Below are positions 1 through 28,524 of a stretch of 64,000 bases of DNA, piece after piece. Under the pieces are notes generated by a model. It was not told where the DNA came from. It ran no database searches and saw nothing but the letters and a program-made list of their open reading frames with translations. Origin of the DNA: Planctomicrobium piriforme (GTDB lineage: Bacteria; Planctomycetota; Planctomycetia; Pirellulales; UBA1268); the NCBI GenBank assembly GCA_945869735.1, contig CAMBPQ010000005.1, forward strand, positions 6,733-70,732, read 5' to 3'. The position numbers and the translations under genes were made by a program. The stretch's first letter is position 1. The number at the start of each line of letters is the position of its first letter.

Positions 1-5
1 TGGGT

Positions 6-629
6 GTGCCGGGCAGCGGCGCACCGGAGGTCGCTGCCGCCGTGGCCGACGCGGTGATGGGCCGCGTGATCCACGCCCCCGCACCACTCCCGCTCCCAAC
101 GCGAGCCGAGGCTGGGCTGCCTGCCGGTGGCGCGGCGATGCGTTGGCGAAAAATGCTGGCGGCGTGGGCCGAGCCGCTGGACCGGGCCAGCTGGGACGAC
201 GACCCGCATCCCGTCATCGCCGACTATTGGTTTGACGAACTCGCCCTCACGGCGGCGGACGACCTTGAGCCCGCCGACCTCGCGGGGTTCGAGGCCGACT
301 TCACCAGTCAAGCCGACGGCATTGTCGCCCCGCAGGTCGCGATCATGCTCGTGGCCGATCAGGCCGCGCTCACCGAACGGATCGCATTTCGCAGCCGCCA
401 TTCCCATCTCCACACCAACGTGTTTGGTGATCTGGCCGTGCGCATGGCTGACGTGTCTGACTGCGACCGCGCCGCCGCGCTGGTGATGTTTCAAGGCCGG
501 CTCGCCCGCCGCCTGCGCTGCCTGGACGGCCGTGGCCCACGGTCTCCCAAGGCCGTGATCACGGTCGACGCCAGCGACCTCGGCCAGGCGATTGCCGAGG
601 CGACCGCAGCCGTCGAGGCGATGCTTTGA
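6..629 (+). CDS. hypothetical protein (N-terminus may lie outside the window)
   Basis: 207-aa ORF with codon usage like its neighbours. Its TGA (627-629) overlaps the panC start (TTG 626 or ATG 629). I recognise no motif. Confidence 0.4.
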   Translation: MPGSGAPEVAAAVADAVMGRVIHAPAPLPLPTRAEAGLPAGGAAMRWRKMLAAWAEPLDRASWDDDPHPVIADYWFDELALTAADDLEPADLAGFEADFTSQADGIVAPQVAIMLVADQAALTERIAFRSRHSHLHTNVFGDLAVRMADVSDCDRAAALVMFQGRLARRLRCLDGRGPRSPKAVITVDASDLGQAIAEATAAVEAML

Positions 630-1513
630 TGGCTGGCACGACTGGGGAGCGGCCCGCGACGGCCCGCGTGATCGCCGAGCCGGCAGCGATGCGGGCGGAA
701 ATCCTCACCGCCCGCGCCGCGGGACGGCGGATCGGGTTTGTGCCGACGATGGGGGCCCTGCATGCCGGGCACGTGAGCCTCGTCGATCGGGCCGCGGCCG
801 AATGCGACGACGTCGCCGTGTCGATCTTCGTGAACCCCACGCAGTTCGGTCCGCACGAAGACTACGCTGATTACCCGCGGACGCTCGAGGCCGATGCGGA
901 GACACTGCGGGATCGACACGTCCGCTGGATCTTCGCGCCCGAGGCCGAGAGCATCTATCCGCCGGACTGGGCCACGCGGATCATGATCGACGGCCCCGCA
1001 CGCCGCTTCGAGGGGGAGATTCGACCAGGGCACTTCTCCGGCGTGGCAACGGTCGTCTGCCGGCTGTTCCTCGCCGTCCCCGCCGACGTCGCCTACTTCG
1101 GGGCGAAGGACTGGCAACAGACGCTCGTGGTGAAGCGGATGGTTCGCGATCTCGGCCTGCCGATCGAGGTCGCCGTCTGCCCCACCGTTCGCGAGCCCGA
1201 TGGCCTGGCGATGAGCTCCCGCAACGCCTATCTTTCGCCCGCGGACCGCAGCCGGGCGACCGCGCTGGCCGAAAGCCTTGCACTCGCCGAGCAGATGTGG
1301 ATCGCCGGCGACGGGCCCACTGCGCTCGAGCGCGCAATGCGCGACCATCTCGGATCGCGGGGTGTCACCGTTGACTACGCCGCGGTCGTCGACAGCGAGT
1401 CGCTGGAGCCGCTCGCCGGCGCCGCTACCGCCGTGGCGCTGGTCGCGGGCCGTCTGGGCAGCACGCGGCTGATCGACAATCGCCAGTTGCCGCCCCGCCG
1501 TGGTACCGGCTGA
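626..1513 (+). CDS. panC: pantoate--beta-alanine ligase (pantothenate synthetase)
   Basis: GFVPTMGALHAGHVSLV (HxGH nucleotidyltransferase motif), FVNPTQFGP and AMSSRNAYL are typical PanC signatures. Length is 295 aa. Confidence 0.9.
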   Translation: MMAGTTGERPATARVIAEPAAMRAEILTARAAGRRIGFVPTMGALHAGHVSLVDRAAAECDDVAVSIFVNPTQFGPHEDYADYPRTLEADAETLRDRHVRWIFAPEAESIYPPDWATRIMIDGPARRFEGEIRPGHFSGVATVVCRLFLAVPADVAYFGAKDWQQTLVVKRMVRDLGLPIEVAVCPTVREPDGLAMSSRNAYLSPADRSRATALAESLALAEQMWIAGDGPTALERAMRDHLGSRGVTVDYAAVVDSESLEPLAGAATAVALVAGRLGSTRLIDNRQLPPRRGTG

Positions 1514-1524
1514 CAGGAGCCCAG

Positions 1525-2533
<1,009 letters not shown>

Positions 2534-2553
<20 letters not shown>

Positions 2554-3253
2554 CGGCGGCCCCGACAGCGGTGACATTGAAGCTCTGCTGGCCGTCGGGA
2601 ACTTTCCTGACGTGACCAGCGTCTTATCAATCAGCTTCTTATTAGTTTGGATTCGGCACGTGGTCAACGGCACCGCCAACCCGCACACCACATCGGATGA
2701 CGCCGTCATCGACCACGACCTCGTGGTCCGGGCGATGGCAGGCGAACGCGATGCGTTTGCGAGTCTCGTCGAGCGACACCACGCGCGGATTCTCGCCATG
2801 CTTGAAAGGCTCTCGGGCTGCGCCGAGCAGGCCCGTGACCTCGCGCAGGAGACCTTTGTATCGGCCTACCGCCACCTCGCTTCGTTTCGCCACGACAGCA
2901 GGTTCTCAACCTGGCTGCATGCCATTGCCTGCAACCAGGCGGCGACGGCAGCCCGGCGGCGACGGCCTGTGGCGTCGCTCGACGCGCCAGGACGGGACGG
3001 CGGGGCGGCCCACGAACCGTACGCCCCACTGCTCCATGTCGGCGCCCGGCTGGAGCAGGCCGAACTCCGGACCCGCGTCAAGGCGGCCCTCGCTCAACTC
3101 GACGAACGGTATCGCAAGGTGGTCGTGCTCTCCGACATGCAGGGCGAATCGTACGAGGAGATCGCCACCGCGCTCGACATCCCAATCGGCACCGTCCGCA
3201 GCCGGCTCCACCGCGGCCGCACGCAACTTCGCTCCCTGCTCGCGACCGAATAA
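2534..3253 (+). CDS. ECF-type RNA polymerase sigma factor (true start probably downstream of 2534)
   Basis: Region 2 reads ERDAFASLVERHHARILAMLERL...DLAQETFVSAYRHLASFRHDSRFSTWLHAIACNQ. Region 4 HTH reads ESYEEIATALDIPIGTVRSRLHRGR. The ORF-track start overlaps the lgt 3' end. Confidence 0.85.
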
Positions 3254-3263
3254 GGCGACCATC

Positions 3264-4403
3264 GTGAACCGTCCGACACCGGAACATCCAGCGTCCCTAC
3301 TCGCGTTCGACGATCCACGGATCAGCGAATGGATCGACGGTCGCCTCGTGGCAAGCGACGCAGACCTCGTGGCCCGGGCCGTGGCGGCTTCTCCGGAGTT
3401 GACCCGATTCGTCGACGACCTGCGGTTGCTGAAGGCCACCGTCGCAGAAGTCGAGGCCGCTCAACCGCCCGCTGGGTTTGTGCGGACGGTGATGGAGGCG
3501 GTGGCCAGCGAGTCGCCGGTCGGTGCGGGGGACGATCCAGCTGTCGAGGCGGAGTGGCAAAGGCTCGAGGCCGAGCGGATTGCCCAAGAAATCGAGGAGG
3601 CCCGCGATGATGTGACCAGCGCCGAACGGCAGCAGCATCGGCCGCCTTGGACGTGGCTGGCGATGCTGGCATCGCTCGCGGCCGGGGTGCTCGTGGCGGC
3701 TGGGCTCAACCTCCTCCCGCGACAGGGTGGCCGCGAGGTCGCCATGGCGCCAGACGGCGCGCCCACACGCGATACGCAGGCGATCTCGGAGCGTGATGAC
3801 GTGCTCTGGCCTACTGGTTCCGAAATAGCAGATAAAGGTAAGGAGGCTGGTGCTGGTGCTGGGATGGTTGCTGGAGTGGCCGAAATAAAAGCAGGTAAGG
3901 CGGCTGCTTCTGGTGCTGGGATGGCTCCTGGGATGGCTGCGGGGGGGCGTGCTCGGGCCGAAGCGGCTGCGGCGGCGGTCGACGAGCTCGTGGTGATGGT
4001 CGATGGACCGCGGGGGCGGGCGACGCTGGCGAGGCTCCTCGAAAAGAGTGGCCTCGGCAGTGGCCGCGGCGAAGCGGCGGCGGCTCTCGAAGAGAACTGG
4101 CTCGAAGTGGCAGCGGCCGCCCCGGCAATCGAGGCCTTCAAGGCTGCCCTCGGCGGACTGGCGGAGGGCGGGGTGCGGCTGCCAGAGGCGGACAAGTCGT
4201 TGGCCCTGGCACAGGCCGCCCGTGCGGTCGATTTCGGCGCGGACGCCAGCGACCGGCTGGCTCATAAACAATCTGAACTCCGCCGCCTGGCCGACGACAC
4301 CATCCGCCGCCTCGTCATCCGGATCGTCGCCGACGACGAACAGTTGCCAGCCGCCCCCGCAGCGGCCAAAACCTCTCCCACTCCAAGCGATCTCGAGGAA
4401 TGA
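3264..4403 (+). CDS. putative single-pass membrane anti-sigma factor
   Basis: It lies directly downstream of the ECF sigma gene. GTG 3264 is in frame with track ORF 2697..4403, whose 5' part merely overlaps the sigma gene in another frame. One TM segment (WTWLAMLASLAAGVLVAAGLNLL) is followed by an Ala/Gly-rich periplasmic part. There is no HxxxCxxC zinc motif. Confidence 0.55.
   Translation: MNRPTPEHPASLLAFDDPRISEWIDGRLVASDADLVARAVAASPELTRFVDDLRLLKATVAEVEAAQPPAGFVRTVMEAVASESPVGAGDDPAVEAEWQRLEAERIAQEIEEARDDVTSAERQQHRPPWTWLAMLASLAAGVLVAAGLNLLPRQGGREVAMAPDGAPTRDTQAISERDDVLWPTGSEIADKGKEAGAGAGMVAGVAEIKAGKAAASGAGMAPGMAAGGRARAEAAAAAVDELVVMVDGPRGRATLARLLEKSGLGSGRGEAAAALEENWLEVAAAAPAIEAFKAALGGLAEGGVRLPEADKSLALAQAARAVDFGADASDRLAHKQSELRRLADDTIRRLVIRIVADDEQLPAAPAAAKTSPTPSDLEE
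3820..3936 (+). repeat. in-frame tandem duplication (about 60 bp + 57 bp), visibly lower GC, inside the anti-sigma CDS
   Basis: ccgaaatagcagataaaggtaaggaggctggtgctggtgctgggatgg is followed by ccgaaataaaagcaggtaaggcggctgcttctggtgctgggatgg. Together they encode SEIADKGKEAGAGAGMVAGVAEIKAGKAAASGAGMAPGM. Confidence 0.7.
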
Positions 4404-4714
4404 CCGCTTCCGAACAGCCCGCCGACGATGCAGCTCAGGGCAGGGCGTACTCGGTTCCCGGGTGCGTGACGATCCGCTGTCGCCAGCACGGTCCGCTGGT
4501 CGTCGAGATGCCAGCCGAGGGGGGCCTGCGGCTGCGGGTAACCGACCATGAGGGGCGCGAACTCCCGCTACCCGACCACAAGCGGGCCGTAGCCCTCTGC
4601 CGCTGCGGCCAGACGGCGACCAAGCCTTTTTGCGACGGCTCTCACAAGACCGCCGGGCAAAAGAGTACCGGCGACCATCCAGAGGCCCGGGCGCCTTCGG
4701 CTTCGGATGCGTGA
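4400..4714 (+). CDS. CDGSH iron-sulfur domain protein
   Basis: CRCGQTATKPFCDGSHK matches the CDGSH 2Fe-2S signature C-x-C-x2-(S/T)-x3-P-x-C-D-G-(S/A/T)-H. The start ATG overlaps the anti-sigma stop (ATGA at 4400-4403). Confidence 0.8.
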   Translation: MTASEQPADDAAQGRAYSVPGCVTIRCRQHGPLVVEMPAEGGLRLRVTDHEGRELPLPDHKRAVALCRCGQTATKPFCDGSHKTAGQKSTGDHPEARAPSASDA

Positions 4715-4725
4715 CGCCTTTGGCG

Positions 4726-4761
4726 CCAGGAAGCCCGGAGCGCGAGCAATGGGTATGCGGG
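4726..4761 (+). repeat. solo copy of the ~40-nt family-B motif
   Basis: ccaggaagcccggagcgcgagcaatgggtatgcggg resembles gtcaggaagccccaagcgcgagcgcggggtatccggg at 18843 and 19070. It lies just 3' of the CDGSH gene. Confidence 0.5.
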
Positions 4762-4918
4762 TGGTGGGTCTGTTCCGCCTACGGGAAATGTAAGGCAGAC
4801 GGAACCTGTTCCCAGGAAACCACTTAGGTCATGCAGGGGCGAGAAAAAAAGGAACGCAAAAGGCCAGAACGATCTGGACTGTCCCGCCAAACACCTGTAG
4901 GGTTGAGAGGCTCGGCGC

Positions 4919-7459
4919 TTGGAAATCGTCCGACAGAACGCCCCGGAAGGCATGATGTCTCACCAGCGGTCAAACTTCTACCAGCGGCACAGCATCGGGA
5001 TCATGGCCGTTCTGGTCTTCCTGATGCCCTTGGTGGTGATCGGGGCCATCAAGGCCAAGAGCAACAACCGCAACGACGTCAAAGGCTGGCTGCCGGCGGA
5101 ATACCCGGAAACCCAGACGTACCGTTTTTTCCGCCAAAACTTCCAGGGCGAGGAGTTCATCCTCGTCAGTTGGGAAGGCTGCACGATGGCCGACCCCCGG
5201 CTGGAGATGCTGGCCAAAAAACTGCTCCCGCCCCCGGAGGAAGCCTCGCGGATCGATCGGCCGCTCTACTACAAAACCGCCCAGACCGGCCCCAGGGCCG
5301 TCGAGCGGATGGGCCAGGATCCCCTCAATCTGGGTCGCGAGGAGGCGATCGCCCGCCTGACCGGGGCCCTGATCGGTCCGCCGCCGCCGGGGGTGGAGGC
5401 TGGAGCGGACGGGGACGACCTCGACCAGCGGAAGACCTGCCTCGTGCTCACCCTGGCCGATGCCGCCCGGGCGAATCTCCACGGCGCAATCGACGAGATC
5501 CGGAAGGTCGCCGTCACCGAATGCGGGATCCCGGACGCGGGCCTGCACATGGGCGGCCCGCCGGTCGACAACGTCTCGATCGACAAGGCCGGACAGACGA
5601 GCGTCACGATCCTCTTCGGCCTGTCGCTCGTCGTCGGCGGTATCGTCAGTTGGTGGAGCCTCAAGAGCAAGACACTCGTGGCAATGGTGATTGCCTCAGG
5701 CGTCTACAGCATGTTCGCGAGCCTGGCCGTCGTCTGGTATTCGGGCTTTCCAGTTGACGCCATCCTGCTCACGATGCCGTCGCTGGTCTACGTCGCGACC
5801 ACTTCGGGCGCGATCCATCTGGCCAACTACTACCGCGACCAGCTTGCGGAGACGGGTGTGCAGGAAGGCGCCGCCGGCCGTGCCGTGCACCACGCGCTCT
5901 TGCCGCTCTCCCTCGCGACGGGCACGACCGCCATCGGCCTCGCCACGCTCGCGGTCAGCGAACTGGTGCCGATTCGCATGTTCGGTATCTTCTCGGCCAT
6001 AGGCGTCGTGGTGAGCTTCCTGATCCTCGTCACGTTCATGCCGGCGGCGCTCGAACTCTTCCCACCGAAACTCAAGGTAGGGATGCTCGCCGGCGACGAA
6101 AACTCGGTCGGTTGGAAGCCGGTCGAGTCGAGCCGGTGGTGGGCGGCGGGCCAATGGATCACCCAGCATCATGCCCTCGCGACTGCCGTCTGCCTCATCG
6201 TGATGGCGGTCGTGGGCTACGGCATGACGCAGGTCGAGAGTAGCGTGCAGTTGATGCGGCTCTTCTCGCGGAAGGCCCAGATCCGTACCGACTATGCCTG
6301 GCTCGAGAGCCATCTGGGCCCCTTGGTGCCCATGGAAATCCTCGTGCGCATCGACGAGAAATGTCCGCTCAACTTTCTTGAACGGATGGAACTGGTCGAC
6401 GAGATTCAGCGGGAGATCGGCAGCCTCGACGCGGTGGGCAGCTCGTTGTCGACCGTCACGTTCGGCCGTAACCTCGAGGGCGGCAGTGCGGGCGAGGGAC
6501 TGCGGGCCAAGCTCGCCCGCAGCACGCTCAACAAAGCTCTGGTGCGGCACCGCGACGATTTCCTGGCCGGCGACTACCTGCGTGAGGCGAAGGTCGCCGA
6601 CTCCGCAGGATTCCCCCGGCAGCAGGAACTCTGGCGGATCAGCGCTCGCGTGAGCGCGATCCAGGAGGTCGACTACGCCCTCTTCAAGGCCGACCTCCAG
6701 AAGAAGATCGATCCAGTGCTCACCCGGCTCGATGGCGATGGCGTTAGCGGCATCGCGGTCGACTACACAGGGCTCGTGCCGCTGGTCTACAAGGCCCAGC
6801 ATTCCCTCCTCGAAAACCTCAAGATCGGGTTCATCTTCGACTTCGCGATCATCGTCGTGGTCATGATCCTCCTCTGCCGGGCCACATCGGCCGGGCTGGT
6901 GCTCCTGCTACCGGCGGCTTTTCCTGCGGTGGTGGTGTTTGGCTTCATGGGCTGGGGCAACGCCCTGTTGAAATCGATGCATGCGGGCAACCTGTTCATC
7001 GACATCGGCAGCGTGATGGCGCCGAGCGTGGCTCTCGGCGTGACCGTCGACGACGTCGTTCACTTCATGCTCTGGTTTCGCCGCGGCATCGCCGACGGCC
7101 TCGACCGCAAGCAGGCCACGATGCTCGCCTACAAGGGCTGCGCCCGGGCGATGTACCAGAGCTGGGGCGTGATCGGCATCGGGCTGTCGGTCTTCTCGCT
7201 GTCGCCGTTTGGTCCGACACAGCGGTTTGGACACATGATGCTCGCGATGCTCACGGTCGCTCTGGTGGGCAACCTCGTGCTCATGCCTGCCATGCTCTCG
7301 GGACCTCTCGGCGGCTTGTTCGCCTGGAGCGTGCACCGCATCGAGCGGAAGAAGGCCGCCCAAGCCGGCCGCCGCTACGTGATCCCCAATTCCGGTAGCG
7401 ACGCCCTCCCTGCTCCCCATGTCGCGCCCGGGCCGGCGAAGCAGGTCGTGCACGCCTGA
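4919..7459 (+). CDS. MMPL/RND-superfamily membrane transporter (HpnN-like architecture)
   Basis: 846 aa with two blocks of about 5-6 TM helices separated by large soluble loops and an N-terminal single TM. This is the typical MMPL layout. The likely start is MMSHQRS near 4949. Confidence 0.7.
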   Translation: MEIVRQNAPEGMMSHQRSNFYQRHSIGIMAVLVFLMPLVVIGAIKAKSNNRNDVKGWLPAEYPETQTYRFFRQNFQGEEFILVSWEGCTMADPRLEMLAKKLLPPPEEASRIDRPLYYKTAQTGPRAVERMGQDPLNLGREEAIARLTGALIGPPPPGVEAGADGDDLDQRKTCLVLTLADAARANLHGAIDEIRKVAVTECGIPDAGLHMGGPPVDNVSIDKAGQTSVTILFGLSLVVGGIVSWWSLKSKTLVAMVIASGVYSMFASLAVVWYSGFPVDAILLTMPSLVYVATTSGAIHLANYYRDQLAETGVQEGAAGRAVHHALLPLSLATGTTAIGLATLAVSELVPIRMFGIFSAIGVVVSFLILVTFMPAALELFPPKLKVGMLAGDENSVGWKPVESSRWWAAGQWITQHHALATAVCLIVMAVVGYGMTQVESSVQLMRLFSRKAQIRTDYAWLESHLGPLVPMEILVRIDEKCPLNFLERMELVDEIQREIGSLDAVGSSLSTVTFGRNLEGGSAGEGLRAKLARSTLNKALVRHRDDFLAGDYLREAKVADSAGFPRQQELWRISARVSAIQEVDYALFKADLQKKIDPVLTRLDGDGVSGIAVDYTGLVPLVYKAQHSLLENLKIGFIFDFAIIVVVMILLCRATSAGLVLLLPAAFPAVVVFGFMGWGNALLKSMHAGNLFIDIGSVMAPSVALGVTVDDVVHFMLWFRRGIADGLDRKQATMLAYKGCARAMYQSWGVIGIGLSVFSLSPFGPTQRFGHMMLAMLTVALVGNLVLMPAMLSGPLGGLFAWSVHRIERKKAAQAGRRYVIPNSGSDALPAPHVAPGPAKQVVHA

Positions 7460-7562
7460 GTCGACCCTCACGGAGCCCCCATCGCTCCCCCGATTGGGCT
7501 CCCAGAAGCGGAGCCGCACAAGCGACACGACTGTGTCACGCTGGTGGTGCTAGAGTTGGAGC

Positions 7563-8792
7563 ATGACGACTCACTCTCCCACCGCTCCCGTCACCGGCCT
7601 GCCGATGGCGACCGTGGTGCTCAAGCCCAAGCGGGCCCGGCCGTTCTTCGGCCGCCACCCCTGGGTCCTCGACTCCGCCGTGCTCAAGGTCGATGGCCAG
7701 CCCGCCGATGGCGACGTGGTCGATCTGGCCACGCACGATGGCAACTTCGTGGCCCGCGGCCTCTGGAACTCGCAGAGCCGGCTGCGGGTGAGGCTCTATG
7801 CCTTCAACGCCTCCATCAAACTCGACGCTGACCTGTGGCGCGGCCGCATCGCCGCGGCCGTGGCCTTACGGACGGTCCTCGGCCTCGATGACCGCACCGC
7901 CGCCGTCCGGCTGATCAACAGCGAGGGGGACGACCTCTCCGGCCTGATCGTCGACCGCTACGGTGACTACCTCGCCGTGCAGGTGACGGCACTGGCGATG
8001 GCAGAACGGCTCGACACGATCTGCGACGCGCTGGAATCGACCGTCACTCCCAAGGGTATCCTGCTCCGTGGTGCGGAGCGGGGGCTCGCGAAGCTTGAGG
8101 GCCTCGCGCTCGTCGACCGCGTCGTCCGCGGCTCGGCACCGAGCGGCCCAATCTTCGTCCACGAGCACGGTCTGAAGTTCGGCGTCGATCTCGCCGAGGG
8201 ACAGAAGACGGGCTACTACATCGATCAGCGGGACAACCGGCAGGCGGCAGCTCGGTATGCCCAGGGCCGCCGCGTGCTCGACATGTTTTGCTACTCCGGC
8301 GGCTTCGCGGTGGCCTGCGCCGTCTCCGGCGCCGCCCGCAGCGTGCTGGCCGTCGACTCCAGTGCCAAGGCCGCGGCGCTTGCCCGCGCGAATGCCGACT
8401 TGAACGGCGCGGCCAACGTGACGGTCGACACGATCGACGCCTTCGAGAAACTCGACGCCTTGGCCGCGGCGGGCGAGCGGTTCGGGATGGTGATTCTCGA
8501 CCCACCGAAGTTTGCTCGCAGCCGCTCGAGTGTCGACGACGCCCTGCGGGCCTACCACCGCATCAATCGGGTGGCCGTCGGCCTCCTCGAACCAGGCGGC
8601 ATCCTCGTCACCTGCTCCTGCTCGGGATCGGTGTCGCGAGAGGACTTCCTGCAAATGCTCTCCGGCGTAGCCCAGCGGTCGGGACGACCGATCCAGTTGC
8701 TGGAGTGCCGCGGCGCAGCGGCCGATCATCCCGTCAGCGCCAGCTGCCTCGAGGGTGAATACCTCAAGTGCGTCATCGCCCGCGTGGCGTGA
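7563..8792 (+). CDS. rlmI: class I SAM-dependent rRNA (cytosine-C5) methyltransferase, RlmI-like
   Basis: N-terminal PUA-like part (VLKPKRARPFFGRHPWVLDSAV), QKTGYYIDQRDNR, SAM-binding VLDMFCYSGGFAV and the DPPKFA motif. Confidence 0.75.
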   Translation: MTTHSPTAPVTGLPMATVVLKPKRARPFFGRHPWVLDSAVLKVDGQPADGDVVDLATHDGNFVARGLWNSQSRLRVRLYAFNASIKLDADLWRGRIAAAVALRTVLGLDDRTAAVRLINSEGDDLSGLIVDRYGDYLAVQVTALAMAERLDTICDALESTVTPKGILLRGAERGLAKLEGLALVDRVVRGSAPSGPIFVHEHGLKFGVDLAEGQKTGYYIDQRDNRQAAARYAQGRRVLDMFCYSGGFAVACAVSGAARSVLAVDSSAKAAALARANADLNGAANVTVDTIDAFEKLDALAAAGERFGMVILDPPKFARSRSSVDDALRAYHRINRVAVGLLEPGGILVTCSCSGSVSREDFLQMLSGVAQRSGRPIQLLECRGAAADHPVSASCLEGEYLKCVIARVA

Positions 8793-8800
8793 CGGCGGGC

Positions 8801-9139
8801 CTCCCATCAGAAAGCTCCAAGCGCAAGCACGGGGAATACGGGCGGCCTCGAGTCGATCCCGTATTCGTTCGCGAGTTGTGCTTCGGCGTCAGAAAGCCCC
8901 AAGCGCGAGCGCTGGGAATACGGGCGGCATTGATTCGGTACCGGATTGGATCGCCGGTCGGTGGCATGCTCGCCACCGGGGGATTTTGCTACAGGATGCC
9001 CGCTTGGCCTACGGAGTATCAATCGTGAGTCGCAAAGATTCCCCGGCGTCTGCGCGTGCCTCCGACCGGCTCCTCACGATCTGGAGACTGCGACTCCCGT
9101 CAGGCAGCCCCAATCGCGAGCGCGGAGAATACGTCCGCC
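8801..9139 (+). repeat. family-B repeat locus (three 40-nt motif copies plus one ~170-bp core)
   Basis: Motif copies are at about 8801-8846, 8885-8928 and 9094-9139. The core at 8929-9093 is homologous to 18885-19066. A 9-bp perfect hairpin GAATACGGG/CCCGTATTC lies at 8834-8876. Confidence 0.75.
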
Positions 9140-9226
9140 ACCCCATCCCGCTCCGCACCACGCCCACGGCTTGCCACCCGCATTCCCGGAACCCACCCGC
9201 TCCCCGTCTCGGGCTTTCCCGAGCCG

Positions 9227-9502
9227 TCACGCCCGCCGCAGCCGCGTGTACTCGTCCATCGTGACGGTGGTGATTTCGCCATCGTCACGGGCCAGGATCA
9301 GCACGTCGCTGTAGACCTTGTCGTCGCCGCTCCTGCGAAAGTGAAGCCCGTGCCGCCGCCGCTCGCGATGCAGCACACTGCCCACGGTCTTCGTGCTCCA
9401 GTTCAGCGACGAGCCGACTGTCACCCCATGGATCACCTCCACGCGGTCGCCCGGCTCGAGTTGCTCGTAGAGGCTCCGCGCCTCGTATTCCTCTGGCGTC
9501 AT
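9227..9502 (-). CDS. small hypothetical protein
   Basis: 91-aa ORF lying 6 bp downstream of ilvC on the same strand, with plausible codon usage and no motif I recognise. Confidence 0.4.
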   Translation of the reverse strand: MTPEEYEARSLYEQLEPGDRVEVIHGVTVGSSLNWSTKTVGSVLHRERRRHGLHFRRSGDDKVYSDVLILARDDGEITTVTMDEYTRLRRA

Positions 9503-9508
9503 GAAGGA

Positions 9509-10513
9509 TCACACTTCCTTGCTGTCGATCCACTTCATCATCTTCCGGAGGCCGCGACCGGTCTCCGTGAGCTTGTGCTCCCGCTCGCGGCGGCGGGTCG
9601 TCTTGAACATCGCGGCGCCGCCGCGGTTCTCGAGGATCCAATCGCGGGCGAACTCACCCGAGCGGATCTCCTCGAGGATCTTCTTCATCTCGGCACGGGT
9701 CTCGTCGGTGATGATCCGCTTGCCACGCGTGTAGTCGCCGTATTCGGCGGTGTTCGACACGCTGTAGCGCATGTACTCCAGACCGCCCTGATAGAAGAGG
9801 TCGACGATCAGCTTCATCTCGTGGAGGCACTCGAAATAGGCCATTTCCGGCTGATAACCCGCCTCGACGAGCGTGTCGAAGCCCGCCTTGATGAGTTCTG
9901 AAACGCCTCCGCAGAGCACCGCCTGCTCGCCGAAGAGATCGGTCTCGGTCTCCTCCGCGATCGTGGTCTCGATCACGCCGCCGCGGGTGCCGCCGATGCC
10001 CTTGGCATAGGCGAGGCCGATCTTCTTGGTCTCGGAGCTCGCGCCAGGGCCCATCGCGATCAGGCAGGGCACGCCGCCCCCCTTCACGTATTCGCTGCGC
10101 ACGAGATGACCGGGGCCCTTCGGGGCCACGAGCAGAATATCGTGGCCCGGGGGAGCCTCGACCTGGCCGAAGTGAAAGTTGAAGCCGTGGCTCGCCATCA
10201 GCACGGCACCCTTCTTCAGGTTTGGCTTGATCGACGCCTTATAGACGTCGCCCTGCAGTTCGTCGGGCAGGAGGATGTTGATGACGTCGGCCTGCTTGAC
10301 GGCCTCCTCGACGCTCACCGGCGCGAAGCCGTGGCTCTTGGCAAGCTCGTAGTTGGGGCCACCCGGCCGCTGGGCCACGATGACGGTCAGGCCGCTGTCG
10401 CGGAGGTTCTGGGCCTGGGCGTGTCCCTGCGAGCCATAGCCGATGATGGCGATGGTCTTGCCTGCAAGGGCCTTCAGGTCGGCGTCGGCATCGTAATAGA
10501 TCGTGGCAGCCAA
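9509..10513 (-). CDS. ilvC: ketol-acid reductoisomerase (NADP+)
   Basis: [21 protein letters not shown] (Rossmann motif), [20 protein letters not shown] and EYGDY are class I KARI signatures. Length is 334 aa. Confidence 0.95.
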
Positions 10514-10574
10514 GGGTTCACTCCGATATGGGAAAGCGGGTCAAGGATGGGAAAGGGAAGGCGCGGCCGAGGCA

Positions 10575-11132
10575 TCAGGCCAGCGACTCACCTACGGGTG
10601 CGGAATCTGCGGGGCGGGCCCCGTCGGCGGCCTCGGTGGTTTCGCGGGTCGGTGGGCTTCCCCTGACCATCGCGATCCGGCCGGTGCGAACGAGTTCGAG
10701 GATGCCGTGGGGCCGCATCACCTCAACGAAGCCCTCGAGCTTCTTTTCAGTGCCCGAGAGTTCGACGATCACGCTGTCGGCGGCGACATCGATGATGTGC
10801 CCGCGGAAGATGTCGGCGAGTTCCTTGATCTCGGCCCGTGCGGGGCCAGCGAGGGCGGCGATCTTGATCAGGAGCAAGTCACGCTCCACGTAGTTGCGGC
10901 TGCTGATGTCGTCGACCCGGACGACCGTGACGATCTTCTCGAGTTGCCGACGCACCTGATCAAGCACGCGGTCGTCACCGCGAAGAACGAACGTCATCCG
11001 CGAGAAATGCGGATCCTCGGTCTCACCGACCGCGAGGCTGTCGATGTTGTAGCCCCGCGATGCCAGCATGCCCGACACATGTGCAAGCACGCCGGGGACG
11101 TTCTGGACGGTGGCGGAAAGGACATGGCGCAT
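10575..11132 (-). CDS. ilvN: acetolactate synthase small (regulatory) subunit
   Basis: N-terminal ACT domain MRHVLSATVQNVPGVLAHVSGMLASRGYNIDSLAVGETED. It lies upstream of ilvC. Confidence 0.9.
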   Translation of the reverse strand: MRHVLSATVQNVPGVLAHVSGMLASRGYNIDSLAVGETEDPHFSRMTFVLRGDDRVLDQVRRQLEKIVTVVRVDDISSRNYVERDLLLIKIAALAGPARAEIKELADIFRGHIIDVAADSVIVELSGTEKKLEGFVEVMRPHGILELVRTGRIAMVRGSPPTRETTEAADGARPADSAPVGESLA

Positions 11133-11310
11133 GGCTGGCTCGCGACGGGCTCCGGGCCGGGATCGGCAGGCGGGGCGCCGGGCAAAGCCGCCGCTGCAGA
11201 GGCAGGTCGGAGTCTAGTAAGGGCAAACCCTCGCGTTCAAGCCTCGACCGCGGTTTTCCGGGCCGCAGGGGGGCGGGAATGCGTCGGCGGACGCGGACGG
11301 CGGACGCACG

Positions 11311-11338
11311 TTGACAGAGGGGGGGAAAAGCCGATAGT
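11311..11338 (+). promoter_or_regulatory. candidate sigma-70-type promoter for rpsB-tsf
   Basis: TTGACA (11311-11316), 16 nt, then GATAGT (11333-11338), about 75 nt upstream of the rpsB start. This is sequence resemblance only. Confidence 0.3.
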
Positions 11339-11412
11339 TTGCGGTGCTCGGAGTACGCGAGGCTCCGTGGCCCCTGTGTCGTTCCCCCCTGACCCCAGCG
11401 AGCGAGAAGAGC

Positions 11413-12216
11413 GTGTCGAACGTCTTGGCCCAGGAACTGATTGAAGCCGGCGTCCATTTTGGCCATCGTGCCAGCCGATGGAACCCGAAGATGAAGCCCT
11501 ACATCCACGGGCGCCGGAACCTGATCCATATTATCGACGTCCGCGAAACCATCCGCGGGCTCCTGCGGGCCAGAAAGTATCTCAAGCAGGTCTCCTCGAC
11601 CGGCAGCTTGATCCTGTTCGTCGGGACCAAGCGCCAGGGTGCCGAGGCCGTGGCCCGCGAGGCCGCCCGCTGCGGCATGCCTTACGTCAGTGACCGCTGG
11701 CTCGGGGGCACGCTGACCAACTTCCGCACGATCCGCAACCGTCTGGCCCGCCTCGAGGAACTCGAGACCCTGATCCCGTCAGAGGCGTTTGGCTCGTATT
11801 CGAAGAAGATGCAGTCGTCGCTCCGCCGCGAGCACCGCAAAATGCTCCGTAACCTCGGCGGCATTCGCACACTGTCCAGACTGCCTGAGTGCCTCGTCAT
11901 ATTCGATCCCAAAAAGGAAAAGAACGCGGTCAGCGAGGCCCGCAAAATGGGCATTACGACCGTGTCGCTGATCGACACCGACTGCGATCCTGATCTCATC
12001 GACCTCCCGATCCCTGGCAACGATGACTCGATCCGCTCGATTGAACTGGTCGCCTCCCGGTTGGCCGATGCAGTCCTTGAGGGCAAGTCCCAGTCGGCGA
12101 CCGAAACTCAGGTGTCGGCCGAGGGTGCCGAGGGCGTGGTCGAGGGCGAAGGCAAACTGAAGCCCAGGGGCCGGCCGATGGTCGCCAAGCGTTCGGTGTC
12201 GAAGCCGAAGACCTGA
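11413..12216 (+). CDS. rpsB: 30S ribosomal protein S2
   Basis: [23 protein letters not shown] and the conserved S2 core. GTG 11413 is in frame within track ORF 11344..12216. Confidence 0.95.
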
Positions 12217-12350
12217 CCAACGCGGCAGCGGATGTTCAGTCTGTTCGGGCCTGCCACCGGCCTGCTCAGGGTCGACTCCTCGGTCAGCCCGCGAGACTTG
12301 CACTCTCCACCCGCATTCGTTGAACCACGCTCCCCAGGAGAAGGAAACCC

Positions 12351-13193
12351 ATGGCTGAGATCACCGCAGCGGCCGTCATGGCCCTCAGGGAAAAGACCGG
12401 CCTGCCGATGATGGAGTGCAAAAAGGCACTCGCTGAATGCGGCGGCAACACCGAGCAGGCCGTCGATTGGCTTCGCAAGCAGGGCATCAAGACCCAGTCG
12501 ATGCGGGCCGATCGGGAGACCTCCTGCGGCCGCCTGGCCGTGTTTGCCGACCCGTCGAAGGGCGTTGGCACGATCATCGAACTGAAGTGCGAAAGTCCGC
12601 CGGTGGCCGGCAGTGATGATTTCAAAGCGCTCGCCAACGACATCGCCAAGACGCTGGCGCTCGGCCCGGGCGCCGCGACGCCGGCCGACCTGCTCGCACA
12701 GAAGAGCCTCGCGCATCCCGACCGCACCCTCGGCGAACTCAAGGACGATCTCTTCAACCGCATGCGAGAGGTCTTCGAACTCTCAAGAATCAAGCGGATC
12801 GACGGCCCCTGCGGCGGCTATGCCCACCACGACGGCTCCAAGGCCGCGTTGATTGAGATCGCGGGCAACACGTCGGCAGCGAACGCCGGCGAAGTGGCGA
12901 AGGACGTCGCGATGCACGTGGTCGCCCTGGCGCCCCAGGCGATCCGCAAGGAGGATCTCGATCCCGCGGTTGTCGAGAAGGAGCGGGCAATCCTCACCGA
13001 GGCAGCCCGCAACGAAGGCAAGCCAGATAACATCATCGCCAAGATGATCGAGGGCCGGCTGCGAAACTTCTTCAGCCAGTGCGTGCTCCTCGAGCAACCA
13101 TTCGTGAAGGACGACAAACAGTCGGTGGGTCAGTTCGCGAAGGCGGCCGGCCTGGAGATCACGTCGGTGGAGAACTGGAGGCTGGGTGGGTGA
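12351..13193 (+). CDS. tsf: translation elongation factor Ts
   Basis: N-terminal UBA-like MAEITAAAVMALREKTGLPMMECKKALAECGGNTEQAVDWLRKQG. It follows rpsB. Confidence 0.95.
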   Translation: MAEITAAAVMALREKTGLPMMECKKALAECGGNTEQAVDWLRKQGIKTQSMRADRETSCGRLAVFADPSKGVGTIIELKCESPPVAGSDDFKALANDIAKTLALGPGAATPADLLAQKSLAHPDRTLGELKDDLFNRMREVFELSRIKRIDGPCGGYAHHDGSKAALIEIAGNTSAANAGEVAKDVAMHVVALAPQAIRKEDLDPAVVEKERAILTEAARNEGKPDNIIAKMIEGRLRNFFSQCVLLEQPFVKDDKQSVGQFAKAAGLEITSVENWRLGG

Positions 13194-13296
13194 TGGTTTG
13201 GGAGGCGACGCCAGTGCCGCCCGTTGCAGCGGACCTGCGGCTGCTGACCGTTTCTGGCCTGGTGGTTGATCGTCGCGAAAGCATCCCGAGGGAGCG

Positions 13297-14037
13297 ATGG
13301 ACAAGACGCCTTATCGCCGCGTGCTCCTGAAACTCTCCGGCGAGAGCTTCGCCCGGACGGGTGAGCGGGGCATCTCGATGGATGAGGTGGTCCACATCGC
13401 CCGGCAGACGGTGCAGGCGGTGGCGCGAGGTGTGGAACTGGCCGTCGTGATCGGTGGCGGCAACATCCTTCGCGGCGGCTCGTTTACAGCCGGCAATGCC
13501 GCGATCCAGGAGGCGACGGCCCACTATATGGGAATGCTCGCCACGGTGATCAACGGCCTGGCACTTCAGGACGCGCTCGAGAGTCTGGGTGCGCAGACGC
13601 GGCTCATGACGGCGATCCGCATGGACGGCGTTGCCGAACCTTACATCCGTCGCCGAGCCCGGCGGCATCTGGAGAAGGGGCGGATCGTGATCCTCGCCGC
13701 GGGTACCGGCAGCCCGTTCGTGACGACCGACACCGCCGCGGCACAGCGGGCGCTCGAACTGGGCGCCGATATTCTCATGAAGGCCACCCGGGTGGATGGC
13801 GTCTACTCCGACGACCCCGAGAAGAATCCACACGCGGTGCTCTATGGCGAACTCTCCTACCAGCAGGTGCAGCAGCAAAACCTGCGGGTGATGGACGGCA
13901 CGGCGATCTCGCAGTGCATGGAGCACGGGATGCCGATCCTCGTCTTCAACTACCGTCGCGACGGCAACATCGAGCGGGCGGTCGCGGGCGAGCGGATCGG
14001 CACGATCGTCGGCTCCCGGCGACAGGGCGACGCCTGA
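13297..14037 (+). CDS. pyrH: UMP kinase
   Basis: [24 protein letters not shown] and [19 protein letters not shown]. Confidence 0.95.
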
Positions 14038-14095
14038 GGCAGCCTCGCGGCCGACCAGGGCGTATACTCGCGGGCCTCCCGCACCTCAAGGAGCC

Positions 14096-14662
14096 ATGCC
14101 GATGCCCCTCGACGACATTCTGCTCAACGCCGAAGAACGGATGGAGAAGGCGGTGGACGTCTTTCGCCACGCGCTTACCGGTATCCGCACGGGCCGAGCC
14201 AATCCTGGCCTGGTCGACACCCTGCGGGTCGAGGTCTACGGCTCGCCCACGCCCATCAAGGCGCTCGCGAGCGTCGGCGCACCCGAATCCAATCAGATCG
14301 TCGTTCGTCCATTCGATCCCGGAACGCTCAAGGACATCGAGAAGGCGATCCAGGCCAGCGACCTGGGCCTCAACCCACAGAGCGACGGCCGGCTGATCCG
14401 GATCGTGATCCCGCCGCTCTCCGCCGACGTCCGCAAGAAGATGTCGGCCCGCATTCGCGATCTTGCCGAGGAGGCCAAGGTTGCGATCCGCAACGTCCGC
14501 CGCGACGCCAACAAGGCAGCCGACACCGAGAAGTCGGATGGCGACCTCACGGAAGACGACTGCGAGCGGTGCAAGGAGGACGTTCAGGAGCTCACCAAGA
14601 AGTATGAGGGGAGTGTCGGCGACCTCGCGAGAACGAAGGAATCCGAGGTCATGGAGCAATGA
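14096..14662 (+). CDS. frr: ribosome recycling factor
   Basis: RTGRANPGLVDTLRVEVYG, IPPLSADVRKKM and IRNVRRDANK. Confidence 0.95.
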   Translation: MPMPLDDILLNAEERMEKAVDVFRHALTGIRTGRANPGLVDTLRVEVYGSPTPIKALASVGAPESNQIVVRPFDPGTLKDIEKAIQASDLGLNPQSDGRLIRIVIPPLSADVRKKMSARIRDLAEEAKVAIRNVRRDANKAADTEKSDGDLTEDDCERCKEDVQELTKKYEGSVGDLARTKESEVMEQ

Positions 14663-14690
14663 CACGCCCCGCGCCTGCGCACCACCGGCC

Positions 14691-15431
14691 ATGATCGAGG
14701 TTTTTGATCTCGTCAAGGAATATCGCTCCGGCGACGGTGCGACCGTGCGGGCCGTCGACGGCGTCTCGTTTGTCGTCCATCCGGGGGAGATGGTGGGCCT
14801 GCTCGGCGGTAATGGCGCCGGCAAGACCACCACCATGCGGATCCTGGCAACGCTGCTGAAGCCCACCGCAGGCACGGCCTCGATCGCCGGACACGACGTA
14901 CGCACCGAACCGCTCGCCGTTCGCGGCCGGCTCGGCTACGTCTCGGCGACGACTGGCGTGCCCGACCGGCTCACGCCCCGAGAGGTTCTCGCGTCGTTTG
15001 GCAGGCTCTACGGGCTGCGCCGCGGCCACCTTGCGGACCGGATCGATTCGCTTTCCGCCACACTCGACCTCGGCGGCTTTATCGACCGGCCGTGTGGCCG
15101 CCTCTCGTCGGGGCAGCGTCAGCGCGTGTCGCTGGGGCGGGCGCTGGTCCACGATCCGCCGGTACTCGTGCTCGATGAACCGACCAGTGCGCTCGACGTG
15201 CTCGGCTCCCGGGACCTGCTCGCGTTACTCGACCGCCTCCGGGACGACGGCCGCACGATCCTGCTCTCCACCCATCGACTGCACGAGATCGAGCGTCGCT
15301 GCGACCGCTTTCTGGTTATCAGCGGCGGCCGCATCCTCGCGGACGGAACCCGCGAGGCGCTCGTCGCCGGCCACGAGGGTGGCCTCGAGGCGGCATTCTT
15401 CGCAGCCGTTGCACCGGAGGCGCGGCTGTGA
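14691..15431 (+). CDS. ABC transporter ATP-binding protein
   Basis: Walker A GGNGAGKTT, signature LSSGQRQRV, Walker B VLVLDEP and H-loop STHRL. ATG 14691 is in frame in track ORF 14463..15431. Confidence 0.9.
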   Translation: MIEVFDLVKEYRSGDGATVRAVDGVSFVVHPGEMVGLLGGNGAGKTTTMRILATLLKPTAGTASIAGHDVRTEPLAVRGRLGYVSATTGVPDRLTPREVLASFGRLYGLRRGHLADRIDSLSATLDLGGFIDRPCGRLSSGQRQRVSLGRALVHDPPVLVLDEPTSALDVLGSRDLLALLDRLRDDGRTILLSTHRLHEIERRCDRFLVISGGRILADGTREALVAGHEGGLEAAFFAAVAPEARL

Positions 15432-17608: not shown

Positions 17609-18732
17609 GCGGCGAACCGTGGATGGTGGGATTCCGGCGGGCCGCGGTGGCGAGCGGCATCGTGGTGGTGACATGCCTGATGGTGGCGATCTTCGAGGGC
17701 AGCCTGCGAGGCGAGCCCGCGGCGACGACACCGCGGGTCTTAAAGGTCGCGATCGCACCGATTGCCTCGGCGGTCGAGTGGCAGAACGATCAGCCGACGG
17801 GTGCCATGATCGACATCTGGAAGGAAGTTTCCCGACGGCTGGGCATCTCCTCGGAGTTCATCCGCGTCAAGACATTCGTCGAACTCATGGACCTGGTCCG
17901 GGAGGGGAAGGCCGACGTCTCGCTCGGGCCGCTGGCCATCACCGAAGAACGCGAAAAAATGTTCGATCTGACGCATCCCGTCTTCCACTCCGGCATGCGG
18001 ATCGCCGTGCGGCAGCGGAATGAAAGCGGGTTGGTGTCCGCTGTGCGGTCGATGCTGTCGTGGAAGCTCCTACAACTCATCGGGCTGGCCGTGGCCCTGG
18101 GTGTCGTCTCCGGCCACCTGCTCTGGTGGTGTGAACGAGGCCGCAATCCCCGCTCGTTTCCCCCGGACTATCCCCGCGGCGTCGGCGAGGCGATCTGGTG
18201 GATCATCTCGACGATCGTCACGGGCGGCTGCGACGACAAACACGTCGATGGCCCCCTCGGCCGAATCCTCGCCTTGTTGTGGATGATCGGCGGCATCGGC
18301 CTGATCGCCACCTTCACCAGTGTGCTCACGGCGACGATGACGGCCGAGCGTGTCACGGGCATGATTCAAGGCCCTCGCGACCTCGCGGGCCGGTCGATTG
18401 GCTGCCAGGAGGGCTCGGTGACCGTGTAGACGATCCGCCAACGTGGGGGTTTCCCGCAGGAGTATGCGACCATCCTCGATGCGATCGATGCGCTCGAACT
18501 TGGCATGGTAGACGCGGTGGTCGGCGAGGCTCAGACGCTGATGTACGTCATCAACGAGTCGGGAAGGAACGAGGTGAAGCTCGTCGGCCCGATCTTTGAC
18601 TCCTTCGACTACGGCCTGGCGCTGCCGACGAGCAGCCCGCTCCGCGAGGAACTCAATGCGGTGATCCTGCAACTGCGGGAGGACGGCACACTCACCCGCA
18701 TTCAGGAAACCTGGCTGGGCGTTCACGACTAG
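17605..18732 (+). pseudogene. GluR0-type ligand-gated ion channel (SBP lobe 1, M1, P-loop, M2, SBP lobe 2) interrupted by an in-frame TAG at 18427-18429
   Basis: Track ORFs 17224..18429 and 18505..18732 are in the same frame and are separated only by one TAG. Family-3 solute-binding lobes (ADVSLGPLAITEEREKMFDLTHPVF ... VDAVVGEAQTLMYVI ... YGLALPTSSPLREELN) flank a two-TM pore module (GEAIWWIISTIVTGGCDD). The ATG overlaps the upstream stop (ATGA at 17605-17608). Confidence 0.7.
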
Positions 18733-18840
18733 AGCGCATTCGAGTTACGTGGAACGCCGGCTCGGGGGCGGCAAAAGTCTCGTCGCTCTCTCGCCGCGGC
18801 GGCTCAGGCGCTCCTCGAGCGTTTGCCGACCCCCTTGCCT
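18730..18840 (-). repeat. family-A dispersed repeat, copy 1
   Basis: TAGAGCGCATTCGAGTTACGTGGAACGCCGGCTCGGGGGCGGCAAAAGTCTCGTCGC...GCTCCTCGAGCGTTTGCCGACCCCC. It starts on the TAG stop of the channel gene and abuts family B. Confidence 0.85.
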
Positions 18841-19160
18841 CCCGTCAGGAAGCCCCAAGCGCGAGCGCGGGGTATCCGGGCTGCATCGATGCGGTGCCGG
18901 ATTGGTTCACCGGCGGTGACATGCTCGCCGCCGGGGGATTTTGCTCCAGGATGCTCGGGTGGCCGACTGGGGAATTGCTTGAGAGTCGCAAAGATTCCCC
19001 GGCGTCTGCGCGTGCCACGCCCGGCTCCTCACGATCGGGAATCGGGTGGGTCACCGTGGGTGTTGCTTCCCGTCAGGAAGCCCCAAGCGCGAGCGCGGGG
19101 TATCCGGGTCGCATCGAGACGGTGCAGGATTGGTTCGCCCGCGGACGCTCAAAGGCCTGG
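18841..19160 (+). repeat. family-B repeat locus (about 1.3 tandem units of ~228 bp)
   Basis: The 40-nt motif cccgtcaggaagccccaagcgcgagcgcggggtatccggg occurs at 18841 and again at 19069. The intervening core is homologous to 8929-9093. Confidence 0.8.
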
Positions 19161-19449
19161 TGGCTCCCGCTCCACAAAACCCGTCCAGACCACAGATGTG
19201 ATCGCCCTGCGCGGCGGCCGTTTACCGCTCTGCCCATGAAAAACCCGGATGGACCGAGAAACTTTCTGGAAGTAGGTTTCGAGGATCGCGTTGGGGGTGA
19301 GGCCGGGAGCATGCCACTGTCGCCGATCGGCCTAGGAACGGGCAACATCGGCTGCGGTCGCCTGCGGCAGCCGCCAGCCGTTGTGGATTCCAGCAGCGCG
19401 GCGACATACTGACGCCCCCTTATTCCATCCTATTTCGGAGTCACGGTTC

Positions 19450-19914: not shown

Positions 19915-19915
19915 C

Positions 19916-24825: not shown

Positions 24826-24835
24826 GGGGCCGACA

Positions 24836-28380: not shown

Positions 28381-28524
28381 GCACGAAAGCGGCTAGACAG
28401 GCCCTTCCCGTAGCGCCCGCCTCTTTGTGTGGCGAACGCTATCGGTCGGCCCGGGCGGACGATCGGCCGCGGACATATACTCGGGTCGTTCGACTCTTTC
28501 CTTACCGCAGGACGCCGGTCCCCC

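Follow-up and report, generated by a model that had tools for sequence, protein, structure and literature searches.

REP/BIME-like mosaic repeats as the probable nature of a motif recurring after genes in a Pirellulales genome

A motif of about 40 nt recurs in three intergenic regions of a 64,000-nt stretch of Planctomicrobium piriforme DNA (Planctomycetota, Pirellulales; assembly GCA_945869735.1, contig CAMBPQ010000005.1, positions 6,733 to 70,732), which we call the window. The copies follow a gene for a CDGSH protein, rlmI and a channel gene, and they raise the question whether the motif is a signal belonging to these genes or a repeat that settles behind them. An earlier reading, made from the sequence only, had named the motif family B and had seen in it the frame of a conserved core, always in one orientation 3' of plus-strand genes. 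It proposed an element of the 3' untranslated region (3'-UTR). Our analysis favours, with a probability of about 0.72, a cluster of mosaic repeats resembling repetitive extragenic palindromic (REP) sequences, the bacterial interspersed mosaic elements (BIMEs) built from them and the paired REPs known as REPINs. Such clusters appear to turn over between close relatives after genes in some Planctomycetota, and not to constitute a conserved 3'-UTR signal.

The six copies of the motif lie at 4720-4759, 8801-8840, 8883-8922, 9094-9133, 18839-18878 and 19067-19106, all of them intergenic and 65-100% identical over 40 nt to the reference copy. Repeat finding and a covariance model agree on these positions, and the copies first reported were placed well. 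The 22-nt core of the motif, AGCCCCAAGCGCGAGCGCGGGG, has five matches in the window at up to three mismatches against 0.01 expected by chance, the 38-mers at 18843 and 19071 are identical, and a covariance model of the full element (R1), run without filters, recovers only six sites in the 64 kb at E<0.01. Since the homology between units extends past the 40-nt motif, what the window shows is units arrayed head to tail, at periods of 82, 211 and 228 nt, and not a motif bracketing a core. Tandem Repeats Finder did not report these arrays in the window. The copy at 4720 has one mismatch to the consensus of the right arm described below and five to that of the left arm, and is matched by the model on the minus strand, so its polarity is opposite to that of the other five copies and the six do not all read the same way. 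Nor does the element end at 9139, as had been supposed: the unit that begins at 9094 is of full length, has a degenerate right arm and continues to about 9227, at the stop of a convergent gene (9227-9502, minus strand). In the unit at 8801..8884, a DNA fold pairs GAATACGGG with CCCGTATTC.

The copies in other genomes reveal the structure to which the motif belongs. A degenerate 22-mer, scanned against one genome per species, matches at least 100 stretches, nearly all in metagenome-assembled genomes (MAGs) of Planctomycetota; the hosts include Pirellulales LejiaB_66_22, Planctomycetia LakeFargette_MAG_67_38, a Planctomycetaceae MAG, several Phycisphaerae and two Bryobacterales. The matches occur on both strands and in arrays, and many fall within 50 nt of contig ends. 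The DNA fetched from these genomes holds at least 130 arms in LejiaB_66_22 and at least 94 in the LakeFargette MAG. LejiaB_66_22 is 89-96% identical to the window over 40079-47299 (~7 kb), so the window comes from a close relative of this MAG.

In these genomes the 40-nt motif forms the left arm (L) of a larger element, and an inverted, slightly different right arm (R) normally stands ~56 nt downstream. On the plus strand an arm consists of the foot C-A-G-(A/G), followed by AAG or G, CCCC, AA, GC, GCGA or GCAA, GC, GC and GGGG, and folds into a 4-bp stem behind the 5' foot, a 2x2 internal loop, a 2-bp stem and a GNRA loop. GCGA or GCAA forms the tetraloop of 180 of 195 L arms (92%) and of 92 of 98 R arms (94%). 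The R arm reads CCC[A/G]TCGCTCGCGCTCCGGGCT, with the reverse complement AGCCCGGAGCGCGAGCGATGGG. The bases before the stem vary by lineage: GAAG in the window, LejiaB and LakeFargette, AGAG in Phycisphaerae and Bryobacterales, and CCAG in the CAWBOY MAG. The foot of the window lineage is CAGA+AA (copies at 8801 and 8883) or CAGG+AA, and in copies from Phycisphaerae and Bryobacterales CAGA or CCGA adjoins the stem-proximal G without extra bases.

The canonical element spans ~125 nt, with an L arm, a 56-nt loop and an inverted R arm, and ends in imperfect inverted repeats of ~33 bp. In 60 L-R pairs from related Pirellulales and Planctomycetia MAGs the starts of the arms are 77-80 nt apart, or 88 nt in one subfamily. 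Arrays in related loci have periods of 127, 135 and 151 nt, consist of near-identical repeats and break off after the L arm of the last unit; the order L>R<L>R<L> is also seen in arrays. Compact forms are found in other lineages: perfect L-L palindromes at a distance of 37 nt, or L-R pairs at 28-35 nt. Arms also occur commonly on their own, as head-to-head L-L doublets or attached to other modules.

In the consensus structure of the canonical element, 21 pairs join L to R. At the outermost predicted pair, 23 copies have A-U and 10 have G-C, and the pair next inward is G-C in 24 and G-U in 18. These switches match the arm ends of two MAG lineages, CAGGA.../...TCTTG and CGGGA.../...TCCCG; at its outer end the stem survives lineage-specific changes. 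G-U occupies ~41 cells against ~12 for A-C or C-A, an excess compatible with, and suggestive of, folding of one strand, as single-stranded DNA or RNA. None of these counts represents independent events.

Arms are combined with other modules. The two cores that the motif had been thought to frame are homologous, since 8887-9133 and 18839-19110 align at 78.6% over 266 nt with the invariant stretch included. The core belongs to a long form of the unit, known in 14 copies (two in the window, seven in LejiaB loci and five from three JGI metagenomes found by a 20-mer scan), in which the L arm leads through a linker, common to other loci, into a module that we call H. The consensus fold of H is a single long imperfect hairpin of ~115 nt with 34 pairs, nearly invariant in its arms and variable at its centre. 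Not one pair in this hairpin shows a compensatory change among the 14 copies. The 7-bp hairpins CGGTGGC/GCCACCG and CCGGCGG/CCGCCGG, regarded previously as one structure kept although its arms differ, are different registers of a GC-rich stretch, and the 14 copies have no compensatory changes in either. Covariation analysis thus lends the core no support, and H behaves as a further palindromic building block and not as a demonstrably structured RNA. The conserved ATGCTCG of the core could begin an open reading frame (ORF) of 20 codons, a reading that was also considered and rejected: a 1-nt indel shifts the frame in one copy, and the variation is not 3-periodic.

A second repeat, family A, abuts the L arm at 18840/18841. 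This fusion is real, and the same junction recurs at no fewer than 13 other loci. The combinations of arm, linker, H and family A form a mosaic, as in BIMEs. Family A occurs in the window in both orientations (18729-18840, 22217-22329 and 38266-38306, and as the reverse complement at 28207-28382, 33536-33653 and 49909-50173), with the consensus ...GGCTCGGGGGCGGCAAAAGTCTCGTCGC...GCTCCTCGAGCGTTCGCCGACCCCCTTGCC, and its 3' end joins either an L arm or another module, ACCTCCTCCAAGGTGCCATCTCGCCGCTCCACCAAAGGCAGATGCG. Another long inverted repeat, GGGGTTGCCCGTGCCCT...AGGGCACGGGCAACCCC, stands between convergent genes at 47316-47460; its counterpart in a LejiaB locus (L014; fetched loci carry L numbers) is a reversed family-A copy with an L arm. 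In this convergent gap (window 47296-47515) the repeats of the window and of L014 are unrelated, and the flanks are ~94% identical.

Orthologous loci, obtained via RlmI homologues, show how variable the family-B sites are. One of these loci, L114, is collinear with window positions 1-18730 at 83-89% identity over ~18 kb, yet has none of the three intact sites. Behind rlmI the window has a gap of 434 nt; L114 has 87 nt there, holding one degenerate arm, L116 has 27 nt free of repeats, and the 363 nt of L117 contain a family-A copy. The R arm that follows the CDGSH gene in the window is missing in L114, and where the channel gene of the window is followed by the composite of families A and B, 60 nt in L114 lead to a convergent DUF480 gene. 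In collinear relatives each of the three window sites is thus missing, left as a remnant or occupied by a different repeat, and family B is therefore not a conserved cis-element of rlmI, the CDGSH gene or the channel gene.

Some details of these loci deserve separate mention. The collinearity with L114 ends at window position 18730 (L114 20778), exactly where the composite starts, and the DUF480 gene past the breakpoint is not at the corresponding place in the window, which hints at a rearrangement at the repeat cluster near 18730. The channel gene itself, a ligand-gated channel/SBP (solute-binding protein) gene at 17224-18731, contains an in-frame TAG at 18427-18429, possibly a mark of a pseudogene, a recoding site or a sequencing error; the L114 orthologue (19653-20780) is uninterrupted. 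In L116, the repeat-free site downstream of rlmI (4234-4260) has nothing but one small GC hairpin, CGGGGCACGGGTCGCCCCG, which separates the stop codons of the two convergent genes and may be the native bidirectional terminator; the site may also represent the type that the repeats colonise.

The position of the clusters relative to genes is not random. Among the 43 of 147 clusters in related loci that a crude predictor, based on GC content at third codon positions (GC3), allowed to be classified, 18 lie between convergent genes, 23 between tandem genes and two between divergent genes; the background in the same loci is 19% convergent, 62% tandem and 19-26% divergent. Convergent regions are enriched (p=5e-4) and divergent regions depleted (p=0.007 to 0.0004), which bears out the earlier view that the copies are not random debris and prefer 3' ends. 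REPs are likewise enriched in convergent and depleted in divergent intergenic regions (PMC3733652). Polarity is another matter. In tandem contexts 14 clusters are co-oriented with the gene and eight are anti-oriented (p=0.29, not significant), and the polarity within contigs, taken as a stand-in for replication-strand bias, shows no uniformity above chance (p=0.33). The sequence-only reading had held that random orientation and position genome-wide would speak against it; as regards orientation, these tests find no departure from random.

These results bear on the possibility that family B is primarily a functional RNA of the 3'-UTR, a terminator, a stabiliser of mRNA 3' ends or a source of small RNA (sRNA), selected at each site. 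In its favour are the placement after stop codons with convergent enrichment and avoidance of divergent promoter regions, the pairing of L with R through lineage-specific changes with G-U tolerated more than A-C, the near invariance of the H arms in 14 copies from at least four sources, and the known ability of E. coli REPs to terminate or stabilise transcripts (PMC6006769, PMC3733652). Against it stand the 14-to-8 split in orientation, the mixed polarity within contigs and the inverted copy in the window, the lack of conservation of the sites in collinear relatives, the absence of compensatory pairs in the core, and a tandem amplification with identical spacers that is typical of repeats and not of regulatory sites. 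Pattern scans found neither an intrinsic terminator (a GC hairpin followed by a T/U run) nor a promoter pattern inside 4720-4762, 8801-9227 and 18729-19145. A search of Rfam gave no relevant family in the window at gathering score and none at E<=10 in 8700-9300. Of the 3'-UTR proposal, the positional bias towards 3' ends survives; orientation, site conservation, Rfam, the T-run and core covariation all speak against it, and we consider selection for an RNA function at each site unlikely. By analogy with E. coli REPs, a terminating or stabilising side effect is plausible and would be secondary to the nature of family B as a dispersed repeat, but neither the scan for T-runs nor the modest fold z-scores speak for it specifically.

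Table 1. Repeat units of families A and B in the window, and Acido-Lenti-1 copies in fetched loci
Feature	Location	Coordinates	Strand	Support or remark
Solo R-type arm, directly 3' of the CDGSH gene stop	window	4720..4762	-	plus-strand reading GCCAGGAAGCCCGGAGCGCGAGCAATGGGTATGCGGGTGG; R1 match 4720-4843 on minus strand, 21.1 bits
Compact L-R unit: L arm (core 8813-8834), short loop, degenerate R-like arm CCCGTATTCGTTCGCGAGTTGTGCTT	window	8801..8884	+	R1 25.6 bits over 8801-8892
Long unit: L arm (core 8895-8916), linker GGGCGGCATTGATTCGGTACCGGATTGG..., module H hairpin (~8954-9069)	window	8885..9093	+	alignments; consensus hairpin of 34 pairs; DNA-fold z-score -2.9
Full-length canonical unit: L arm (core 9106-9127), 56-nt-type loop, degenerate R arm with 8-nt insertion	window	9094..9227	+	aligned to 44 canonical elements; R1 66.4 bits (copy belonged to the model's training set)
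Family-A copy fused to the following unit, 3' end ...GAGCGTTTGCCGACCCCCTTGCC	window	18729..18840	+	repeat families
Long unit: L arm (core 18851-18872), linker, module H (hairpin ~18910-19024), tail	window	18841..19068	+	alignments, consensus fold
Truncated last array unit: L arm (core 19079-19100) and linker only	window	19069..19145	+	90% identical to 18835-18916
Acido-Lenti-1	L061	3489-3534	-	
Acido-Lenti-1	L061	4077-4122	+	
Acido-Lenti-1	L101	2828-2873	-	
Acido-Lenti-1	L101	3507-3552	+	
Acido-Lenti-1	L103	2911-2956	-	
Acido-Lenti-1	L103	3494-3539	+	
Acido-Lenti-1	L102	2911-2957	-	
Acido-Lenti-1	L108	9928-9973, 10506-10551, 10652-10697		

The arms themselves point to a link with Y1 transposases. 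Structures with a CnGA foot flank the class 3 genes of the Y1 transposase TnpA_Y1 in Planctomycetes, Acidobacteria and Legionella (Quentin et al. 2018, PMC6006769, Table S1); they include ACGAGCCGGAAGCGTGAGCGACGGG of Planctomyces limnophilus and CAGAGCCGCGACCGTTAGGGAGCG of Solibacter usitatus, the latter in ~600 copies (PMC6006769). The family-B arm has the architecture of class 3, with a foot, G, 4-bp stem, 2x2 internal loop, 2-bp stem and tetraloop. In L102, the hairpin that flanks a Y1 gene (the Acido-Lenti-1 hairpin, on the opposite strand) is identical to the L arm at 19 of 22 positions, and a Y1 gene of L061 has an exact copy of the L arm ~50 nt beyond its flanking hairpins. L054 carries an exact doublet of L arms, with a CAGA foot, that overlaps the 3' end of a gene resembling REP-associated tyrosine transposases (RAYTs). 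This gene (6184-6780, minus strand; proteins P0241/P0242) represents a RAYT-like subclade with IDTIHANPV in place of IDYIHxNPV and GPGRIR in place of GPGYDRN; against NCBIfam REP_Tyr_transpos it reaches 59.5 bits where the cut-off is 80, and the L-arm repeat supplies its last ~14 codons.

The Y1 gene of L061 is an IS200-like gene (93 bits to PF01797, 82 bits to NCBIfam IS200, signature Y---Q--HH) with two matches to Acido-Lenti-1 (RF01687), a candidate non-coding RNA of Rfam, around it in inverted orientation. Acido-Lenti-1 occurs within ~150 nt of each fetched IS200-like Y1 gene, a type that resembles subclass 1.2, as an inverted pair in L061, L101, L103 and L108; in L102, only the upstream copy reaches the threshold. 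On its opposite strand, Acido-Lenti-1 forms a REP-type hairpin (xTAG, 8-bp stem, GNNA loop) and a second hairpin, GCCCCGGAGGGGC. Because it adjoins Y1 genes, and does so as an inverted pair in four of the five loci, Acido-Lenti-1 is suggested to be a transposase recognition hairpin rather than a free-standing sRNA. The Y1 genes flanked by it encode proteins of ~150 aa with the Y---Q--HH signature, in Planctomycetaceae and Pirellulales loci. Two Planctomycetaceae MAGs (L102 and L103/L104) have the Y1 gene at 3001-3450, between a gyrA-like gene (DNA_topoisoIV) and gyrB; the identical placement in two different MAGs suggests a vertically inherited, domesticated copy.

Taken together, the proposed explanation is as follows. 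The L arm is the left end of a ~125-nt hairpin element in which each arm is a small REP-type hairpin, and the arms combine, as modules, with the linker, the 115-nt H hairpin and family A. Units are amplified locally into head-to-tail arrays, which could grow via unequal recombination or slippage between direct arm copies. A Y1 HUH enzyme of the IS200/RAYT type presumably recognises, or once recognised, the arms as folded single-stranded DNA and spreads them, and any terminator, mRNA-stabilising or protein-binding role would be a by-product, as in the REPs and BIMEs of E. coli.

Several results weigh against this explanation, and the missing enzyme is its weak point. A Y1 gene flanked on both sides by exact L or R arms was found neither in the window nor in the 119 fetched loci, which are genome fragments. 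As a tblastn query the L061 Y1 protein matches L061 only, and a Y1 profile run on all six-frame ORFs of the fetched DNA returns only the loci fetched for their Y1 genes and a weak match in L054; neither search has a match in the window or in loci of LejiaB and LakeFargette. The class 3 gene (NHVH ... YV[VI]xEQ) was sought by regular expression and profile in the six-frame ORFs of the fetched genome fragments, with no match, and a metagenome scan for an L arm followed by N{20,50} and the second flanking hairpin, GCCCCGGAGGGGCG, gave 0 matches. The RAYT-like protein of L054 has Thr in place of the catalytic Tyr. The foot of the arms lacks the strict GTAG/GTGG tag of classical REPs, and the Acido-Lenti-1 covariance model matches nothing in the window at its gathering threshold of 37 bits, nor anything in 8700-9300 at E<=10, when it gives 37-56 bits in the positive controls L061, L101-L103 and L108. 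Single copies fold with energies only modestly superior to those of shuffled sequences (z-scores of -0.5 to -2.9); single-sequence folds of whole clusters likewise give weak z-scores and register-dependent structures. No target-site or excision footprint is discernible against the intergenic DNA of the relatives, which is too diverged, and the coarseness of the gene calls behind the context statistics counts on the same side.

Some candidates for the enzyme were examined and discarded. A weak tblastn match at window positions 24766-24936 is spurious, lying antisense inside a histidine-kinase/response-regulator pair. Homologues of the L054 RAYT-like gene do not qualify as the cognate enzyme: the Pirellulales MAG of L118 has a different REP and L119 has none. 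Where arms in L073 and L086 are far apart or inverted, the ORFs between them encode housekeeping proteins, namely elongation factor P (EF-P), a radical-SAM protein, Usp and FolD.

A more far-reaching version of the repeat explanation would unite the L and R arms, the Acido-Lenti-1 hairpin and the class 3 structures with a CnGA foot in one ancient family of guide hairpins, with the consensus AG-CCNNNNGC-GNRA-GCNNNNGG, on which domesticated Y1 HUH enzymes would act in Planctomycetota and Acidobacteriota alike. The Pirellulales lineage studied here would have built the composites (L-loop-R and L-linker-H) from it, and the near invariance of H would reflect selection on a functional RNA or DNA structure, not recent spread. 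We offer this joint reading as a speculation, and think it rather doubtful.

The inverted ends of the canonical element also bring to mind a classical MITE (miniature transposable element with inverted repeats), that is, a deletion derivative of a DDE-type insertion sequence (IS), with the L and R arms as ~33-bp terminal inverted repeats (TIRs), moved in trans with target-site duplication. A length of ~125 nt, imperfect inverted ends of ~33 bp around a variable interior, a multi-copy state and presence or absence between relatives would all be expected of such an element. Yet no fetched locus has a transposase gene between L and R arms, 54 aligned copies show no direct duplication beside the ends, and the arms match hairpins associated with Y1 genes. 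Solo arms, L-L doublets and arms on other modules fit the modularity of REPs and BIMEs better than a fixed unit bounded by TIRs. We regard the MITE origin as improbable, more so than the RNA function considered above. Least credible by far is some other repeat-built structure, since what might recall a CRISPR-like array, integron attC sites or a protein-coding repeat (regular spacing, a single orientation within an array, copies that follow ORFs, and long ORFs over the clusters at 8755-9264 and 18823-19239) is contradicted by 'spacers' homologous or identical to each other, which excludes CRISPR, by periods of 127-228 nt that leave no room for gene cassettes, by the lack of an integrase or cas gene nearby, and by ORFs that fail the GC3 frame test of gene calling and copy indels that are not multiples of three.

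If family B is a mosaic repeat of the REP/BIME kind, as we favour, then REP/BIME organisation of intergenic DNA extends to an uncultured Pirellulales clade, and this clade becomes tied to the little-studied class 3 and subclass 1.2 Y1 HUH proteins. The contigs ending in the motif explain the poor assembly of these MAGs, and annotators are cautioned against calling overlapping ORFs or 'sRNA' genes at such clusters. Should the cognate enzyme be identified, the two-arm unit with its fixed mismatches would make a convenient substrate for studying strand-specific hairpin recognition.

Comparison with known systems shows family B to share traits with several of them. MITEs of the Correia/NEMIS and ERIC type are often co-transcribed at 3' ends. 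Family B resembles them in its intergenic units of ~125 nt with inverted ends and long hairpins, but has no visible target-site duplication or parent IS, and its arms occur solo or in other combinations. Acido-Lenti-1 is found in Planctomycetaceae loci adjoining exact L arms (L061), but differs in its perfect stem and in its second hairpin, which is not present in the window. The likeness to the REPs, BIMEs and REPINs of E. coli and Pseudomonas, the domain of RAYT/TnpA_REP, is broader: short GC-rich imperfect palindromes, extragenic and high in copy number; two slightly different variants in inverted pairs, comparable to the Y and Z REPs; mosaic clusters that include other conserved modules, and tandem arrays in which the arms alternate; a preference for convergent or co-directional intergenic regions; and variable presence between relatives. 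The differences are a 5' tetranucleotide other than GTAG/GTGG, arms separated by a 56-nt loop of conserved length and not by a few bases as in REPINs, mosaics that include the 115-nt H hairpin and family A, and the lack of a RAYT flanked by exact family-B arms in the window and the fetched fragments. The class 3 structures share with family B an identical arm architecture, a sequence close to the Planctomyces limnophilus entries, and their taxa, the 22-mer of family B matching Bryobacterales MAGs as well. They differ in that the window lineage has its CAGG/CAGA foot followed by AA before the G, a displacement of 2 nt, and in that the L-loop-R unit, the arrays and the H module are not described for class 3 (PMC6006769). 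Family B is therefore closest to the hairpins associated with class 3 and subclass 1.2 Y1 proteins and to BIMEs, with composite units specific to its lineage.

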